A DNA stretch of 64,000 bases from Myxococcota bacterium (GTDB taxonomy: Bacteria > Myxococcota_A > SURF-8). The stretch spans positions 1,856,001 through 1,920,000 of the forward strand of contig OZ223209.1 in assembly GCA_965140415.1 (NCBI GenBank). Direction: 5' to 3'. Below the pieces are notes generated by a model. That model had not been told where the DNA came from and did not search any database. It saw nothing but the letters and a program-made list of their open reading frames with translations. The position numbers and the translations under genes are program-made. Each line of letters begins with the position of its first letter. Position 1 is the stretch's first letter. This document shows positions 14,324-63,126 of the stretch, in pieces.

Positions 14324-14438
14324 TTCCCCCTTCCTGCGAGATAGGATTCGCTGGGACAAGGTAAGTACTCATGCATAGATGTGCGTAGGTTATACCAGAG
14401 TGGGGTATTGTTCAAACGTAATGAAGGAGGAATGTAGG

Positions 14439-16604
14439 ATGAAGAAGAGTTTATGGTTAATGCTGGTGTTGTTGCTGGCGTTCTCGCTCGTCGCATTCGG
14501 TTGCGGCGGTGATGACGAGGATCCGGCCGATGGCGACACCGCCGATGGCGACGGTACGGTTGATGGCGATGGTACGGTCGATGGCGACGGTACGGTCGAT
14601 GGCGACGGTACGGTCGATGGCGATGCTACTGACGGCGATGCCACTGACGGCGATGCTACTGACGGCGATGCTACTGACGGCGATGCCACTGATGGTGACG
14701 CCACTGATGGCGATGCCACTGACGGCGACACCGTAGCTTGTGCTGGTGGTTGTGGCACGAACGCTCACTGCGACGAAGTCAATGACGTGTGTGTGTGCGA
14801 TACTGGCTACGAAGAAGTTAATGGCAACTGCGTTCTCGACGTTGGTCCGGATGCGTTCGAAGCCTGCACCTTTGGTCAGGTCAATCCGACTGCGGGCGAC
14901 TGCTCCGGCGGCGCGTCTTGCATCGGTATGCATGCCACTCCCGATAGCGGCGGCACCCCGGCTCCCTGTTTGACTGACGATGAATGTACCGCTGATATGG
15001 GTTCCATCGCGACTTGCGCGTATGGCTACTGCGGTATCGCCTGGTGTGCGCCGCCTTGCGTCACCGACGATGACTGCCGCCAGATCGACAGCGGTGCCTG
15101 CTGTGGTCCGGTCGGAACCGACACCATGTGCTACCATCCCGATTTCTGCGATGCTCCTGGCGAGCAGGATTGGTTTGAGCCCTGTTCCTTCGGCGAAGTG
15201 AATGCCGATGCCGGTGGTTGTTTGTCCGAGCTGAACTGCATTGGTATGCATGCGGATTCCACCACCAGCCAGCCTGCTCCCTGCACCGCGGATGCGGACT
15301 GTGCCGCTTCTCTGGGTGAGCATGCAGTTTGCGCCGCTGGCTACTGCGGTATTTCCTGGTGTACCGGTGCTTGCACCACCGATGACGATTGTACTGCCAT
15401 CGATGACGGCGCCTGCTGTGGTCCGGTCGGCAGCGACACCATGTGCTACATCTCCGATTTCTGTTCGACGGTCGAACCGGGTGATCAGGAAGCGGGCGAA
15501 GCTTGTACTTTCGGTGCGGTCAACGCTGATGCCGGTGGTTGTGTCCAGGGCGCTTCCTGTATCGGTATGCATGCTGATTCCAGCACCACTTCCCCTGTGC
15601 CTTGCACCGAAGACGCCGACTGCGCCGCCGATTTGGGCGATCGTGCCGTTTGCGCCACGGGTTTCTGTGGAACTTCCTGGTGTGCCGAAAGCTGCACCAC
15701 CGATGATGATTGTGATGCTGTCGGCTACGGTGGTGGTTGCTGTGGTCCGGTTGGCAACGACACCATGTGCTACATCAACGATTTCTGCGCCCAGGCGGGC
15801 GATCAGGAACCTGGCGAAGCCTGTGCTTTCGGCGATGTCAATGCCGAAGCCGGTGATTGTACTGCGGATGGCTCCTGCATCGGTATGCACGCCAATGCCA
15901 GCTCGACTTCTCCTGCGCCTTGCACTGCAGACGCCGACTGTACGGCGGATCTGGGCGACACGGCTGTTTGCGTGACCGGTTACTGCGGCGTGTCCTGGTG
16001 TGCCGAAAGCTGCACCACCGATGACGATTGTACGGCGGCTGGTTATGGTACCAACGGTGGTTGCTGTGGTCCGGTCGGCAGCAGCACCATGTGCTACATC
16101 GAAGGCTTCTGTGCGACTCCTGGCACCAACGACAAGGGCGAAGCCTGTGCTTTCGGTGATGTCAATGCCGAAGCGGGTAACTGCCTTGAAGCTCTGAACT
16201 GCATCGGTATGTATGCGGATGCCGCATCGGCTCAGCCTGCGGCCTGCACCGAGGATGCGGATTGCGCTACCGTGATGGGCTCGGAGGCGGTTTGTGTGTC
16301 CGGTTACTGCGGCATCTCCTGGTGTACCGAAGAATGCACTACCGATGACGATTGTACCGACACCGGTTACGGCGCCGAAGGCGGCTGCTGCGGTCCGGTC
16401 GGCGACGACACGATGTGCTTCGTCGGTGACTTCTGCGAGCCTGTTGTTGATGGCGACGTGGATGGCGATGTTGACGGTGACGTGGTTGTCGACGGCGATG
16501 TGGTCGTGGACGGCGATGTGGTTGTCGACGGTGATGCGGTCGTGGACGGCGATGCGGTCGTGGACGGCGACGTGGTCGAAGACGGCGATGCGCCTGTCGA
16601 ATAA
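14439..16604 (+). CDS. Lipoprotein with five ~105-aa Cys-rich repeats flanked by DGD-repeat tracts
   Basis: SD AAGGAGG; signal MKKSLW...VAFGC; repeat unit C.FG.VN..AG.C....CIGM.A...CCGPVG.DTMCY...FC occurs five times. Confidence 0.85.
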   Translation: MKKSLWLMLVLLLAFSLVAFGCGGDDEDPADGDTADGDGTVDGDGTVDGDGTVDGDGTVDGDATDGDATDGDATDGDATDGDATDGDATDGDATDGDTVACAGGCGTNAHCDEVNDVCVCDTGYEEVNGNCVLDVGPDAFEACTFGQVNPTAGDCSGGASCIGMHATPDSGGTPAPCLTDDECTADMGSIATCAYGYCGIAWCAPPCVTDDDCRQIDSGACCGPVGTDTMCYHPDFCDAPGEQDWFEPCSFGEVNADAGGCLSELNCIGMHADSTTSQPAPCTADADCAASLGEHAVCAAGYCGISWCTGACTTDDDCTAIDDGACCGPVGSDTMCYISDFCSTVEPGDQEAGEACTFGAVNADAGGCVQGASCIGMHADSSTTSPVPCTEDADCAADLGDRAVCATGFCGTSWCAESCTTDDDCDAVGYGGGCCGPVGNDTMCYINDFCAQAGDQEPGEACAFGDVNAEAGDCTADGSCIGMHANASSTSPAPCTADADCTADLGDTAVCVTGYCGVSWCAESCTTDDDCTAAGYGTNGGCCGPVGSSTMCYIEGFCATPGTNDKGEACAFGDVNAEAGNCLEALNCIGMYADAASAQPAACTEDADCATVMGSEAVCVSGYCGISWCTEECTTDDDCTDTGYGAEGGCCGPVGDDTMCFVGDFCEPVVDGDVDGDVDGDVVVDGDVVVDGDVVVDGDAVVDGDAVVDGDVVEDGDAPVE
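14529..14729 (+). repeat. Coding tandem repeats (DGDGTV)x4 and (DGDAT)x7
   Basis: 18-nt and 15-nt units visible in the DNA. Confidence 0.9.
16449..16590 (+). repeat. C-terminal DGD(V/A)VV coding repeats
   Basis: Nine DGD units, 12-18 nt period. Confidence 0.85.
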
Positions 16605-16652
16605 GATCTAGAGGGTTCTCCCCGCTAGATTCACCGATTCTACGGTGATCCC

Positions 16653-16686
16653 CGAGGGGCGCGGTTTTCCGCGCCTCTCGCTTTTT
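16653..16686 (+). terminator. Intrinsic terminator, preceded by two further hairpins
   Basis: CGAGGGGCGCGG-TTTT-CCGCGCCTCTCG-CTTTTT. Confidence 0.8.
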
Positions 16687-16770
16687 ATGCGGTTATTGAC
16701 AGGAAAGCAGCAGTAGGTTGGGTTGCTTTTGCTACCCGTATCTTATGCATAGCGCGGGTTTTAGGTACAT

Positions 16771-16842
16771 AATAAAAGCGCCCTCAACCTGCACTTGAGA
16801 GCGTTAACCAAATAGATCGAAAGGATTTGTTTGTTTGGTTGG
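16771..16842 (-). ncRNA. Candidate ~70-nt small RNA
   Basis: Upstream TTGACA-18 nt-CATACT (16877-16848); AACCAAA/UUUGGUU stem with a UCCUUUC loop; minus-strand-specific terminator with a U tract. Confidence 0.45.
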
Positions 16843-16938
16843 TTTTAAGTATGACTCATGGTATTGGGATTTGTCAAACCCAATTCGCTACAACACCAAA
16901 ATCAGCAGCAGCAGTAGAAATAAGAGCCCAGCAAGATG

Positions 16939-18069
16939 CTATGGCAGGCTAACCGTGGCCCAAACCGGCAGGTGGTCGGAAAGGTCATCGAAAACGCTTT
17001 TTTCGCCGATGTCGGGCTGGGAAAATACATCTTCTGTTGCGAGCAGGATGTCCAGAATCAAGCCGTAGCCGACTTTGGTCCCTCGTTGCTGCACGTCGAG
17101 AGTGGCGTGTGCATCTACATAGCCCGCATGTAAAAACGGTGCGATGGTTTGATCCGATACGGTGCCGAATTCGAGATCGATGGCATAATAGCCACTGTTG
17201 AAGTCACCTCCCAACACCGCAGGATGAGTAAGAGTGGAAAGAGATTGACGCAGTTCCTCTCCTTGAAGGGCGCGGTAGGTTTCCGTGCCGTCGGATTCGA
17301 AGTGAATTGAAGTGACATGAAGCAACTTATCACCATTTTTAACATCAGCAGATAGCGAGATGCGCCCACCAAGGCGAGGTTCCTCCGTTCCGTACCAGAC
17401 GCGCTGATCTTTGTGGCGCAGCAGGGTGACGTTGCCGAGCGGATAGCGGGAAAGAATGGCATTGCCGTGTTCGCAGGTCGCTTCTACCGTGCCGCCGGGA
17501 CCGCCCTCGCGCGGCAACTCGACGAATTCCACTCCGTACACGTAGTTCATCGATAAATGCTGAGCCAGTTCGCGCGTGATGTGACGGTTTCCGGTGCGGC
17601 TGCAACCGCGATCCGATTCCACCAGCAGAATCACGTCCGGTGTCGGCGCATCGACTCCCTCCTGTAGAATCTGCATGATGCGGTCGATCTCATAGCCGCG
17701 TTCGATGTTGTAGGCCATTACCAGCAACTCGTTTTTCGGTTCGGCAGGTGTTTCGATAAAACTTTCACCTTCAATGTCGCAATCGATGGCGATTTTATCC
17801 GCTGCCGATTCAGGGTCATCGGCGTCCGGGCAAAGGAAGTCTTCCATGAAGTCGCGCGGTTGATTTAGCCAGGCGAATTCTTCAAAGTAAAGGGCAGGGG
17901 TATCTGTTTCTGTGGCTTCGGAGTCTCTATCCGCTTCACTGACTTCTGTATCGATTTCATTGTCGCCATCGGGCAGGGAGGAATCGTCATCGGAGGAGCA
18001 GCCGCTTTGTATACCAAGCCAGAAGACGATCGTGGTTGCGAGGCACAGCAAATGGAAAAACTTGTTCAT
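16939..18069 (-). CDS. Endonuclease/exonuclease/phosphatase (EEP) family lipoprotein
   Basis: Lipobox-like QSGC; YNIERG, DVILLVE.D, GNAILSRYP, LGGDFN, LD.L and SDHLPV. Confidence 0.85.
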   Translation of the reverse strand: MNKFFHLLCLATTIVFWLGIQSGCSSDDDSSLPDGDNEIDTEVSEADRDSEATETDTPALYFEEFAWLNQPRDFMEDFLCPDADDPESAADKIAIDCDIEGESFIETPAEPKNELLVMAYNIERGYEIDRIMQILQEGVDAPTPDVILLVESDRGCSRTGNRHITRELAQHLSMNYVYGVEFVELPREGGPGGTVEATCEHGNAILSRYPLGNVTLLRHKDQRVWYGTEEPRLGGRISLSADVKNGDKLLHVTSIHFESDGTETYRALQGEELRQSLSTLTHPAVLGGDFNSGYYAIDLEFGTVSDQTIAPFLHAGYVDAHATLDVQQRGTKVGYGLILDILLATEDVFSQPDIGEKSVFDDLSDHLPVWATVSLP

Positions 18070-59457: not shown

Positions 59458-62400
59458 TCAGGCTTTCGGTTCCGCGGCATAAAGCGCCTCTTCGCGTACC
59501 AGATCCTTGGCGATTGGCTTTTGCGGGAAGCGGTCGATGATTTCAGCCTGTACCGGCAGTACCGTTTTCAGTTTTTCTTCCAGTTCCAGTGGCATTACCA
59601 GTCCCTTGCGACGATTTTCCGGCAGCATCGGGAACACGGCGATTTTGCCCGGTTTGGTGTATTTGCGCAGCACGTAGGCCAGACCGATCTGCAAGCCGTT
59701 CATGTCGGTGGCGCAGGAGGTGACGTTACCGATAAAGTCTCCACGCGAGTTGGCCACCGGATCGCCCGGTTTAAGCGGCTTGGTGCCTTTTTCCGGCACG
59801 CAGAAGCGCACCGTTTCGCGTGTACGTTCAGCTTCGGCTTTGAGCATGGCCTGCTTGCCGATGAAGAAGGGCTTGTGGAATTTCACATAGGATGGGAAGC
59901 CCGCGCCATGCGGCGTCAGGTCGAATGTGCCTTCCAGTTCGTGACCGTACAACGGCAATCCGGCTTCGGTGCGGGTGCTGTCACGCGAGGCCAGGCCGCA
60001 GGGCAACAGCCCGAAGGGCTGCCCGGCCTGCATCAGTTTGTCCCACATTTCCGGGGCGCGGTCGGGATGCACGAAGACCTCGAAGCCCATCTGCTCGCCG
60101 GTGTAGCCTGTGCGTGAAATGACCACCGGCAAACCACCCAATGTGAATTCACCACAGCCGGTGCGCTTGACGGCCAACAGGCGGTCGCGTTGCTCCGGCT
60201 CGATCAGCGCCAGTAACACGTCGCGGGAGCGCGGACCTTGCAGCGCCAAATTGACGCGGCAGTCCTCGCCGTGGGCACGGTCTTTCAGGTTGCGCAGTAC
60301 AGCGGGTTTCAGGATGCGTCGCTGCGGAATTTCGTAGTCGATCAAGACCTTACCTTCGTTCACCGCATTCATCCAGGCCCAGTCTTTATCTTCATTACCG
60401 GCGTTGACGACCACAAGGAAATGCTCTGCATTCAGGCGATAGACCATGATGTCGTCCAGCAGGTGACCGTTGGGTAGCGGCAGGTAAGAATAATAGGATT
60501 CGCCGTCGCGCACCCATTTCGAATAATTGGTGCTTACAAGATCCAGGAAATCGACCGCATTGGGACCGGTAATGTCGAAAACTCCCATGTGCGACACGTC
60601 GAACAGACCGCAGGTGCTGCGCACAGCGCGATGTTCTTCCAGAGTCGATGTGTACCAGACCGGCATTTCCCACCCGGCAAAGGGCACCAGTTTTTTCGTC
60701 AGCTTTTTATGAGTTTCGTACAGGGTGGTTCGCTTGAGTTCGCCTTCCTCTTCCTGCCAGCTGAATTCCGGCAGGTTTTCCGGTTTGTCGAAGGCGTCTT
60801 TCACCAGATTCTGACCGATGAAGTAGGGCTTATGGATGTCGAACCACTTTGTCTGTCCCTTTTCAATCAGTTCCTTTACGGGCGTTCCCGGTTCGGGGCG
60901 CTTGTCCGTTTCACGCAGTAATTTGTGCCCGCCGACTGGATGCTGGGTCCAACTGCGCAGCAATTTGCGTGTTACTTCTTCATGATCTTCCATCGGTACA
61001 ACCAGACGGACAAGATTCTCACCCTTTACCTGGGCCAGAATGACGCCATCGCGCCAGGTTTCGTCTTGCGCCAGAGAGGGAGCGCGTTTGCCGTACAGAT
61101 CGTAAACAAATACCCGGTCGGCTTCGTCGCAATCCTCGCTTGTCAGATCCTCAACGACCGCTGGTCCTTCCACCTTGGCGGTGATGTCAGCCGGTTCGAA
61201 CAGCAGGTAGCCGTCGGCATGGCCGCGCGTCCAGCTTAATACGCGCTGGGCGCGACCGGCGCTGGGCATCACGTAAAACCCGTTGTCCGATTTGTCGTCA
61301 CGCTCGCGGATTCGCATGACCACCACATCGTCTAGCACGTCACCTTCACCGGTCAGCATCAGCGTGCGCAATGCTTCACCGGGTTTGAGAACGGACAGAT
61401 CGTTGGTAACCTGGTTTTGCAGGTGCGCTTCCACGCGTTCGCCTGTCACGCGAATGATGCCGGTCGGAACCGGAATAAACACCGCTTCGGAGTTGACGAT
61501 ATCGTCATCGGCTCCCTCATCCTGGTGCTCTTCCGCCAGGATCTGGTAGTGCGGATAGCCGGAGGTTCGCGTGTCGCGGCCTTCCAACTCGTCCACCAGT
61601 TCGGCCACTTCCCGCTTGGCTTCTTCCAATACATCGAAATGCATTTTGCCGCGCGGCAAGGTGCCGGTCAGACCGTCGTATTTGAAGGGATGGATGTCGT
61701 GCAGGATTTTACTGATCACGTTGGCAAGTCGGGTCAGTTGTTCTTTGGTGATGCCACGCTGGGTCAGCCAGGGCGTTCCCATGCGTACGCCGGTGGCCAT
61801 GGCGGTCAGGTCGTCGCCGGGAATGGTGTTCTTGTTGGCGACGATGCCGCATAATTCCAGCATCCGTACCGCCATTTCGCCGCGCAGTTGCTCGTCCGTC
61901 ACCTTCGGCAGACCCTTCAGATCGGTCAGCAGCAGGTGAGTATCCGTGCCGCCGTAGGCCAACTTCAAGCCTGCTTCGGTTAATGCATTGGCGAAGTGCG
62001 CCGCATTTTCCACGATTTGCTTTTGCACCGCTTTAAAGGATTCCGTTTTCGCCAGTTCCAGCGCCACTGCCAGCGCCGTAATGGTGTTAACGTGCGGACC
62101 GCCCTGCTCGCCGGGGAAAACCGCCAGATCGACCATGCGGGCTTTATCCAGATCGGTAGTCAGAATGATGGAGCCGCGCGGACCCATCAGGGTTTTATGC
62201 GTGGTGAAAGTGGTGACGTCTGCCAGACCGACCGGACTGGGGTAAGCGCCTGCACTGGCCATACCCGCCGGGTGGGCGATATCCGCCATCAACAACGCGC
62301 CGCAACGATCCGCGATAGCGCGGAAGCGTTCCCAATCGGGCGCCCAGGGATAAGAGGTATACCCGGCGATGATCAGGTTGGGCCGATGCTCCATGGCTAG

Positions 62401-63009
62401 TTCTTCGATGCGGTCGTAGTCCAGCTTTTCCGTTACCGGGCTGATGCCGTAGGGAACGATCTTGAAGCGGCGGCCCGACATATGGAATTCCGAGCCGTGG
62501 CTCAAGTGACCGCCGTGCATCAGATCCATGCTTAGAATCGTGTCGCCGTCGTTCAAAAAGGCTTCGAAAACCGCCAGGTTGGCCGCTGCGCCGGAAAGCG
62601 CCTGCACGTTGGCGAAAATGTGGTCGGCGTCTACGCGCTCGTTGGCGAATACTTCCGCCGCGCGCCGGATGCACAGCGACTCGACCATGTTGGCGTAATC
62701 GGTGCCTTTATAGAAACGCCGGTCGGCGTAGCGCCGGTAGATCGACAACTGCCCGCGAAAGTCGGACAACTGCTCTTCGTTCATGTGCGATACCAGAGAA
62801 CTGGGGTAGCCCTCGGCGTAGAGGTTGCCGTATACACTCTGCATCGTCTGACGCACCAGGGGATGACAGAGGCTTTCAGACGGAATCAGGATGAGCCGTC
62901 GTGTCTGACGTTCTTCTTCCATGCGGATCAGGCTGTCAATGGCAGGATCGGCTTTTGCGAGCTCGCCTTCAAAGGGGAAAGTACCAACGGTTTTAATGCG
63001 GTCTGACAT
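59458..63009 (-). CDS. glyA-gcvT: Fusion of serine hydroxymethyltransferase, a partial GcvT-like domain and a full GcvT aminomethyltransferase
   Basis: SHMT motifs YAEGYP, GGHLSHG, TTHKTL.GPRG, GTDTHL and NKN.IP; GcvT motifs FAGWEMPVWY, FDVSHMG, SRTGYTGE and RD..R.EAGLPLYG. Confidence 0.92.
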   Translation of the reverse strand: MSDRIKTVGTFPFEGELAKADPAIDSLIRMEEERQTRRLILIPSESLCHPLVRQTMQSVYGNLYAEGYPSSLVSHMNEEQLSDFRGQLSIYRRYADRRFYKGTDYANMVESLCIRRAAEVFANERVDADHIFANVQALSGAAANLAVFEAFLNDGDTILSMDLMHGGHLSHGSEFHMSGRRFKIVPYGISPVTEKLDYDRIEELAMEHRPNLIIAGYTSYPWAPDWERFRAIADRCGALLMADIAHPAGMASAGAYPSPVGLADVTTFTTHKTLMGPRGSIILTTDLDKARMVDLAVFPGEQGGPHVNTITALAVALELAKTESFKAVQKQIVENAAHFANALTEAGLKLAYGGTDTHLLLTDLKGLPKVTDEQLRGEMAVRMLELCGIVANKNTIPGDDLTAMATGVRMGTPWLTQRGITKEQLTRLANVISKILHDIHPFKYDGLTGTLPRGKMHFDVLEEAKREVAELVDELEGRDTRTSGYPHYQILAEEHQDEGADDDIVNSEAVFIPVPTGIIRVTGERVEAHLQNQVTNDLSVLKPGEALRTLMLTGEGDVLDDVVVMRIRERDDKSDNGFYVMPSAGRAQRVLSWTRGHADGYLLFEPADITAKVEGPAVVEDLTSEDCDEADRVFVYDLYGKRAPSLAQDETWRDGVILAQVKGENLVRLVVPMEDHEEVTRKLLRSWTQHPVGGHKLLRETDKRPEPGTPVKELIEKGQTKWFDIHKPYFIGQNLVKDAFDKPENLPEFSWQEEEGELKRTTLYETHKKLTKKLVPFAGWEMPVWYTSTLEEHRAVRSTCGLFDVSHMGVFDITGPNAVDFLDLVSTNYSKWVRDGESYYSYLPLPNGHLLDDIMVYRLNAEHFLVVVNAGNEDKDWAWMNAVNEGKVLIDYEIPQRRILKPAVLRNLKDRAHGEDCRVNLALQGPRSRDVLLALIEPEQRDRLLAVKRTGCGEFTLGGLPVVISRTGYTGEQMGFEVFVHPDRAPEMWDKLMQAGQPFGLLPCGLASRDSTRTEAGLPLYGHELEGTFDLTPHGAGFPSYVKFHKPFFIGKQAMLKAEAERTRETVRFCVPEKGTKPLKPGDPVANSRGDFIGNVTSCATDMNGLQIGLAYVLRKYTKPGKIAVFPMLPENRRKGLVMPLELEEKLKTVLPVQAEIIDRFPQKPIAKDLVREEALYAAEPKA

Positions 63010-63126
63010 GGAAACTCCTTTCGATCAACCCAGCATGTCTTTCGATAAGAAGGGAAATTCAAGCTTTTATAAATCGTTTTCAACGGCCCGAAAGCGCAAT
63101 ACGGAAACCCGGGCCGACCGTTGGCT

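Follow-up and report, generated by a model that had tools for sequence, protein, structure and literature searches.

The question raised by this locus is whether the DNA downstream of a gene for an endonuclease/exonuclease/phosphatase (EEP) family protein contains a separate small RNA gene or nothing more than the EEP gene's own 3' untranslated region and terminator. An earlier note on this DNA had proposed a trans-acting small RNA (sRNA) with a loop complementary to the SD of a glyA-gcvT gene, affecting glycine and one-carbon metabolism. We analyzed the locus in its 64-kb window (the window is the whole stretch of 64,000 nt under analysis, and coordinates count from its first letter unless a genome position is given) and calibrated its signals in the organism's own 5.98-Mb single-contig genome. 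The gene set used for calibration is a crude codon-usage ORF call (4089 ORFs with a minimum length of 80 aa and start codons chosen heuristically), and every genome statistic below inherits that crudeness. The features under discussion are collected in Table 1.

Table 1. Positions of the features of the candidate locus and of its proposed target in the window
Feature	Position	Strand	Description and basis
EEP gene	16939..18069	-	376 aa; endonuclease/exonuclease/phosphatase family; stop TAG 16939-16941; ORF list
Convergent 741-aa gene	14379..16604	+	ORF list; own terminator 16653-16680 (+)
Near-palindrome	16863..16884		ATTGGG(A)TTTG-T-CAAACCCAAT, overlaps the -35; by reading
Promoter-like site, sigma-70-like	16848..16877	-	TTGACA 16877-16872, 18-nt spacer, CATACT 16853-16848; consensus scan
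Hairpin 1	16806..16840	-	7-bp A/U-rich AACCAAA/UUUGGUU stem, 16840-16834 with 16812-16806; MFE and centroid
Loop segment UCCUUUCGAUC	16815..16825	-	First 7 nt identical to the 16S rRNA 3' tail (CCUCCUUUCU)
Intrinsic terminator	16771..16803	-	Stem 16803-16795 with 16787-16779, 7-nt loop, tail CUUUUAUU
Direct repeat AGCAGCAGTAG	16706..16716 and 16907-16917		Exact, 11 nt; 201-nt spacing; brackets the promoter-RNA-terminator unit
SHMT and GcvT fusion ORF (glyA-gcvT)	59458..63009	-	1183 aa; Pfam SHMT 2.8e-113, GCV_T 3.5e-88; NCBIfam matches
Proposed target GAUCGAAAGGA	63016..63026	-	glyA-gcvT leader; overlaps the SD AAGGAG, 6 nt before the ATG at 63009

The product of the EEP gene matches Pfam Exo_endo_phos (E = 1.9e-09). 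Its 741-aa neighbor lies on the plus strand and has a strong terminator of its own, and the DNA between the two genes is therefore a convergent intergenic region, 334 nt in length. Searches of Pfam and NCBIfam returned no family match for the 741-aa ORF. Its C terminus (16440-16604, plus strand) ends in short repeats of the D-G-D/V-V type, and it is only in a repeat stretch at 16470-16582 that contigs from DNA sequencing runs depart from the window, with gaps of 1 to 3 nt and extra pieces, which suggests either that similar repeats exist elsewhere or that the assembly is ambiguous there.

Read along the minus strand from the EEP stop codon, the region consists of a CTG-rich stretch, a near-palindrome, the -35 and -10 elements, an A/C-rich stretch, and two hairpins. 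The promoter match is located ~60 nt 3' of the stop codon and scores 10/12 against the consensus, with a perfect -35. Based on the usual distance of 6 to 8 nt, the transcript start is predicted at ~16843-16840. The TTGACA-18-CATACT arrangement of the earlier note is present on the minus strand, and its -35 does lie inside the near-palindrome. Read on the minus strand (16884-16863), the latter is ATTGGGTTTG-A-CAAA(T)CCCAAT, and it occurs once in the 5.98-Mb genome (regular-expression search, with both strands matching at one place). It may be an operator, or the RNA of the EEP 3' region may fold there into a hairpin of 8 bp. A Pfam search of 8 ORFs in the neighborhood and 3 adjoining the locus found no transcription factor gene near it. 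Based on the flanking direct repeats, a mobile element was considered and rejected: the repeat is of low complexity and (AGC)n-like, and the enclosed 190 nt are single copy in the genome.

The predicted fold of 16845-16768 contains both hairpins (-16.5 kcal/mol; z = -1.97; an equally good fold in 13 of 200 shuffles), and the terminator hairpin supplies most of this energy. The loop of hairpin 1 is 21 nt long (16833-16813) and reads CAAACAAAUCCUUUCGAUCUA. The terminator stem has 9 pairs in the scan, 5 of them G-C, and 9 to 10 bp in the fold, including one G-U pair, and the U-rich tail CTTTTATT, also given as CTTTTATTAT, stands directly 3' of the stem (16803-16779). The scan detects this terminator on the minus strand only; by reading, the opposite strand has a C-A mismatch in place of the G-U pair. 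Scan and fold thus agree with the earlier description of an AACCAAA/UUUGGUU stem followed by a terminator whose G-U pair restricts it to the minus strand. With its stable G+C-rich stem-loop and the strand-specific U-rich tract directly after it, the minus-strand intrinsic terminator is, judged from its sequence, genuine. It resembles bacterial Rho-independent terminators in its G+C-rich stem of 9 to 10 bp, 7-nt loop, immediate U-rich tail, strand specificity, and position downstream of a gene, and it differs from them in lying 136 nt past the stop codon, with a promoter-like site in between. Terminators in convergent regions of this genome have a median distance of 39 nt, and 153 of 235 lie 20 to 60 nt from the stop codon; since 50 of the 235 lie at least 130 nt away, the distance observed here is unusual but not rare.

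According to the scan, this hairpin is the sole terminator-like site from the EEP stop codon (16939) to the convergent gene. As the sole intrinsic terminator for the EEP gene, it needs no RNA gene to explain its presence. The possibility that the hairpin simply terminates the EEP gene, which the earlier note had raised as a caveat, has thus become a main point: the hairpin would be the EEP terminator at least as certainly as it would belong to a separate small RNA. The sequence that follows the terminator (16747-16780, minus strand; TTTTATTATGTAC.TAAAACCC.GCGCTATGC) is 90.6% identical over 32 nt to genome positions 1140548-1140579 (plus strand), which also lie 3' of a terminator-like hairpin; the E value of this match was 2e-4 in one search and 0.27 in another.

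The genome scan for promoter-like sites found 796 that score at least 10/12, of which 551 are intergenic, and their density per kb per strand is 0.33 in intergenic DNA and 0.024 in coding DNA, a 14-fold difference. A same-strand gene start lies within 300 nt downstream of 424 of the 551 intergenic sites. The gene-upstream sites favor spacers of 16 nt (120 sites), 17 nt (200 sites), and 18 nt (104 sites) over those of 15 nt (40 sites) and 19 nt (42 sites). Based on this intergenic density, the placing upstream of genes, and the enrichment of 16- to 18-nt spacers, the canonical promoter consensus is therefore in use in this organism. The -10 of the candidate, CATACT, departs from nearly all gene-upstream -10 boxes in not beginning with T. 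Intergenic matches that combine a non-T first base with an 18-nt spacer precede a gene in 14 of 28 cases, compared with a fraction of 0.79 for T-first matches and 0.39 for the random intergenic baseline. When the 334-nt region itself was dinucleotide shuffled, a 10/12 match appeared on the minus strand in 129 of 5000 shuffles (2.6%) and on either strand in 5.6%.

As a reference class, we took the terminators in convergent intergenic regions that lie at least 60 nt after a same-strand gene (n = 95). In ten of them, the DNA from the stop codon to the hairpin contains a promoter-like site; 30 shuffles yielded 1.17 +/- 0.86 such cases (maximum, 3), and the enrichment is ~8-fold. Three of these ten units are tRNA genes with perfect TTGACA elements and 16- to 18-nt spacers, indicating that the signature finds real RNA genes; the other seven, this locus included, are not tRNA genes, and no tRNA or tmRNA was found at the locus. 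Over all intergenic classes, 29 of 365 terminators have an upstream promoter-like site (5.2 +/- 2.1 in shuffles), and the convergent regions as a whole hold 32 promoter-like sites against 20.1 in shuffles, a modest excess. Taken together, the perfect -35, the correctly placed terminator, the compact product of ~70 nt, and the ~8-fold enrichment make it plausible that a small unit exists here, as the earlier note had it, while the atypical -10 speaks against it, and the ~70-nt unit is a candidate.

Other non-tRNA units in which an orphan promoter is followed by a terminator are candidate small RNAs of a like kind. They lie outside the window, with terminators, all on the minus strand, at genome positions 5668600-5668619, 578481-578503, 3325776-3325801, and 1733452-1733475, and with a further unit whose promoter -10 ends at 3059600 (plus strand). 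Among them, one has a 12/12 promoter and a product of ~93 nt, one has two hairpins in ~74 nt, and one has a CU-rich CUCUUUCUCCUCUU 5' of an 11-bp terminator.

We then considered whether the match between the loop and its proposed target exceeds chance. The loop segment UCCUUUCGAUC (16825-16815, minus strand) is the exact 11-nt complement of GAUCGAAAGGA (63026-63016, minus strand), and, by reading, a bulged G and three further A-U pairs follow the duplex. The complement over the glyA-gcvT SD, with its bulge and extension, is thus present as the earlier note described it, and, since every other element it listed was also found in place, no detail of its observation needs correction. In this genome, the 3' end of the 16S rRNA reads ...GGAUCACCUCCUUUCU, and 7 of the 11 paired loop bases (UCCUUUC) thus copy the ribosome's own anti-SD tail. 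That part of the match is generic anti-SD sequence had been offered as a caveat, and it proves to be central. The part of the pairing specific to glyA-gcvT is only the self-complementary GAUC. Throughout the genome, the 72-nt RNA has 179 non-self 11-mer matches, with 176.7 expected. Exact complements of at least 11 nt within -20 to +3 are found in 5 of 4089 genes, including glyA-gcvT. The longest, 13 nt, precedes a gene for a CGGC-domain protein, and the others precede SpoVR-like, ThiF-family, and thioesterase genes, with no shared pathway. GAAAGGA occurs in 170 of the 4089 SD regions, and a 4-nt extension is therefore expected by chance in ~0.7 of them.

Controls give the same picture. For 975 genomic 72-mers that carry TCCTTTC at the same offset, with their own antisense sites excluded, the mean number of SD-region matches of at least 11 nt is 4.35, with one or more in 97% of these 72-mers and five or more in 41%. 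Random 72-mers have a mean of 0.93. In the genome-wide ranking of targets, glyA-gcvT does not come out on top by either of two scorings: it is rank 31 of 4089 by cofold ddG (-12.7 kcal/mol, with the best region at -19.4 and 56 regions at or below -12) and a tied rank 12 of 4089 by the duplex energy of RNA nt 1-38 against -30 to +12 (-22.4, with the best at -26.6). For each of the 22 control 38-mers that were scored, 31 or more regions reach -22.4 or lower. The genes whose leaders rank above that of glyA-gcvT share no pathway; among their products are an AAA ATPase, a response regulator, and an ECF sigma factor. Full-length RNAduplex scoring without accessibility was discarded as uninformative, since the duplexes that it returned were implausibly long (-40 to -48 kcal/mol; glyA-gcvT, rank 2152 of 4089). 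We conclude that the complementarity to glyA-gcvT is no better than chance. A UCCUUUC loop matches several SD regions over at least 11 nt almost always, so that such matches alone cannot nominate a target.

As for the proposed target gene, open frames of 1080 to 1257 aa that are alike at the start and carry the SHMT-GcvT fusion are present in 7 of the order's 9 other genomes; a limited literature search found no account of such a fusion. In these 7 relatives the generic SD core, (A)AAGGA(G), recurs upstream of the fusion gene, whereas the GAUC flank does not, and no homologue of the candidate RNA is detectable in them. The glyA-gcvT leader (63010-63122, minus strand) lies after a 10/12 promoter-like site at 63154-63127, and within it the 8-nt sequence ATCGAAAG occurs twice as a direct repeat (63046-63039 and 63025-63018), at an offset of 21 nt. 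In the predicted fold of the leader, which has a stable 5' hairpin, the SD region is paired with an upstream CCUUCUUAUCGA; at a z score of -0.31, this fold is not better than shuffles. No Rfam family was found in this leader.

Searches for the candidate RNA in other genomes gave little. In 40 relatives, none of the same genus, blastn yielded only short chance matches, and a covariance model built from the candidate sequence alone (entered twice) gave best matches outside the locus of E = 0.23, 0.49, and 0.50 in the same genomes; the first two are dissimilar by eye, and the first apparently lies in coding sequence. The genome contains no paralogue that we could find of the RNA, the palindrome, or the whole intergenic region. 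At gathering score, Rfam has no match in the 64-kb window, including GcvB, cuckoo/CcsR, and the glycine riboswitch, and at E values up to 10 there are three snoRNA-type chance matches in 16000-17600, none of them on the candidate. Orthologues of the EEP protein, 45 to 53% identical and alignable to the last residue, occur in 5 of 9 other genomes of the order, and the regions downstream of their genes differ in sequence and in neighboring genes (compared by eye, unaligned). None of the 109 pattern matches from a metagenome scan with the EEP protein was confirmed, and a scan with an exact 24-nt loop pattern gave 0 matches. Contigs of the same organism from three DNA runs of one study are identical to the window over the candidate, with no variation. 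Neither the specific part of the seed nor that of the target was seen elsewhere, a weak sign against the co-conservation of the two that the earlier reading would lead one to expect. Hfq (PF17209) has no match in the single-contig genome, although controls in the same search matched in 5 of 14 genomes, and CsrA (PF02599) is present at genome positions 762904-763062.

Comparison with known systems places the candidate closest in architecture to 3'-region sRNAs. The type I 3'UTR sRNAs of enterobacteria, such as DapZ and MicL, have their own promoter and share the terminator of the mRNA. As in these RNAs, the locus has a promoter-like site near the end of the upstream gene, a short predicted RNA that runs to the gene's terminator, and a predicted single-stranded seed before the terminator hairpin; it differs in that the promoter-like site lies past the stop codon rather than within the coding region and in that no Hfq was found in the genome. 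GcvB (Rfam RF00022) is likewise a small RNA whose name and regulation link it to the glycine-cleavage system. It uses a G/U-rich seed against C/A-rich sites, a polarity opposite to that of an anti-SD loop, and it has no match to the locus in the Rfam scans.

Two further families bear on what the earlier note proposed. The CcsR ("cuckoo") RNAs of Rhodobacter sphaeroides and other Alphaproteobacteria are sRNAs from 3' regions that expose an anti-SD in a hairpin loop and are linked to C1 metabolism; they carry CCUCCUCCC in each of two loops, occur as tandem copies after a DUF1127 gene, and are processed by RNase E (PMC8034643). The candidate would share with them an origin in the 3' region of a protein gene and the display of an anti-SD in a loop, but it has one UCCUUUC loop in a single copy, an EEP gene upstream, and no Rfam match. 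In Neisseria gonorrhoeae, the sibling trans-acting sRNAs NgncR_162/163 pair with the gcvT ribosome-binding site and repress glycine-cleavage genes, which has been validated experimentally, and they act together with a glycine riboswitch (PMC13104608). This is the mechanism that had been proposed here; in contrast to that system, neither a glycine riboswitch nor another Rfam family is detected in the window, and the pairing at this locus is not above chance. Overall, the locus has none of the features that define CcsR or NgncR_162/163: the motif, the number of loops, the copy number, and the upstream gene differ, and there is no Rfam match.

The explanation that we consider to have about an even chance of being right is that the locus encodes a candidate species-specific small RNA of ~70 nt, transcribed from its own promoter and sharing the EEP terminator. 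A serious competitor, to which we assign a probability somewhat short of even, is that there is no separate RNA and the locus contains only the EEP 3' untranslated region and terminator, the promoter match being coincidental or the palindrome being a protein site or RNA hairpin. This account gains from the hairpin being the only terminator-like site available to the EEP gene, from the 50 of 235 convergent-region terminators that are at least as far as 130 nt from their stop codon, and from the missing first T of the -10, which puts the site in a subclass barely enriched before genes (14/28 against a baseline of 0.39). Shuffled sequence also yields the promoter match at a low but real rate on this strand or either, and the search of 40 relatives, of the genome for paralogues, and of Rfam returned no counterpart of the RNA. 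It is opposed by the ~8-fold excess of promoter-like sites 5' of terminators over shuffles in regions of this class (10/95 against 1.17), by a -35 as perfect as those of the three tRNA promoters of the same class, and by the fact that most stop-to-terminator distances in convergent regions are 20 to 60 nt. The same GAAAGGA that makes the minus-strand loop an anti-SD could also be read on the plus strand (16819-16825) as the SD of a small protein gene, 9 nt 5' of a TTG at 16835 that opens a 77-aa frame (16835-17068), in which case the "anti-SD" would be its antisense. We find this hardly credible: the codon score of the frame is -0.12, compared with a median of -0.07 for rejected ORFs and 0.19 for called short genes (5th percentile, 0.07), the product has no Pfam match, the frame runs antisense to the EEP gene over its final 130 nt, and there is no plus-strand promoter-like site past the terminator at 16653-16680.

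A reading in which the loop specifically represses glycine and one-carbon metabolism through the glyA-gcvT SD is, in our judgment, very unlikely. In its favor are the exact 11-nt complement that covers the SD and can be extended, a place among the best 1% of the 4089 translation-initiation regions in both scorings, the second ATCGAAAG copy 21 nt upstream, which by reading could give a second site of 8 nt, and the precedent of the Neisseria sRNAs that target the gcvT ribosome-binding site (PMC13104608). Against these stand the identity of most of the paired segment to the 16S tail and the frequency of GAAAGGA among SD regions, the five SD regions, of functionally unrelated genes, that match over at least 11 nt (best, 13 nt), and the controls, in which UCCUUUC-bearing 72-mers find SD regions as often and 22 of 22 38-mers have at least 31 regions at or below the glyA-gcvT energy. 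Moreover, the GAUC flank is absent in the 7 relatives with the fusion, where there is also no RNA homologue, the leader fold pairs the SD with CCUUCUUAUCGA (though at z = -0.31), and no Hfq was found in the genome. With ranks of 12 to 31 among 4089, control matches as frequent, and GAUC unconserved, an anti-SD sRNA that controls glyA-gcvT is unsupported. A more elaborate version, to which we give very little credence, is that the loop of a palindrome-controlled, Hfq-independent sRNA mimics the 16S anti-SD and masks the SD of the SHMT-GcvT fusion gene, which is specific to the clade, tying serine, glycine, and one-carbon flux to a signal sensed through the palindrome; in that version, both ATCGAAAG repeats of the leader might possibly be occluded.

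If the candidate small RNA with its own promoter is real, its working would be as follows. The promoter inside the EEP 3' region would fire and a noncoding RNA of ~68 to 72 nt would accumulate. Its A/C-rich 5' tail would be followed by a weak hairpin, whose loop has 21 nt, and then by the terminator hairpin, which it would share with the EEP mRNA in the manner of 3'-region sRNAs that have their own promoter. Were such an RNA to act in trans, it would do so free of Hfq, its UCCUUUC loop covering by base pairing the purine-rich SDs of several mRNAs. Among these, the glyA-gcvT leader would be one of ~5 to 30 equally good candidate sites and would not be singled out.

As it stands, the locus is, on the evidence of its sequence, an ordinary terminator region with a putative promoter, and a dedicated regulator of glycine and one-carbon metabolism is an unlikely reading of it, to be given only slight weight. 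The methodological lesson is that matches of a 16S-like UCCUUUC loop to SD regions are insufficient for nominating a target. Should the RNA exist, it would belong to a group of about seven non-tRNA units in the convergent intergenic regions of this genome in which an orphan promoter is paired with a terminator, and it would be among the first candidate riboregulators in a lineage without close sequenced relatives or a detectable Hfq.
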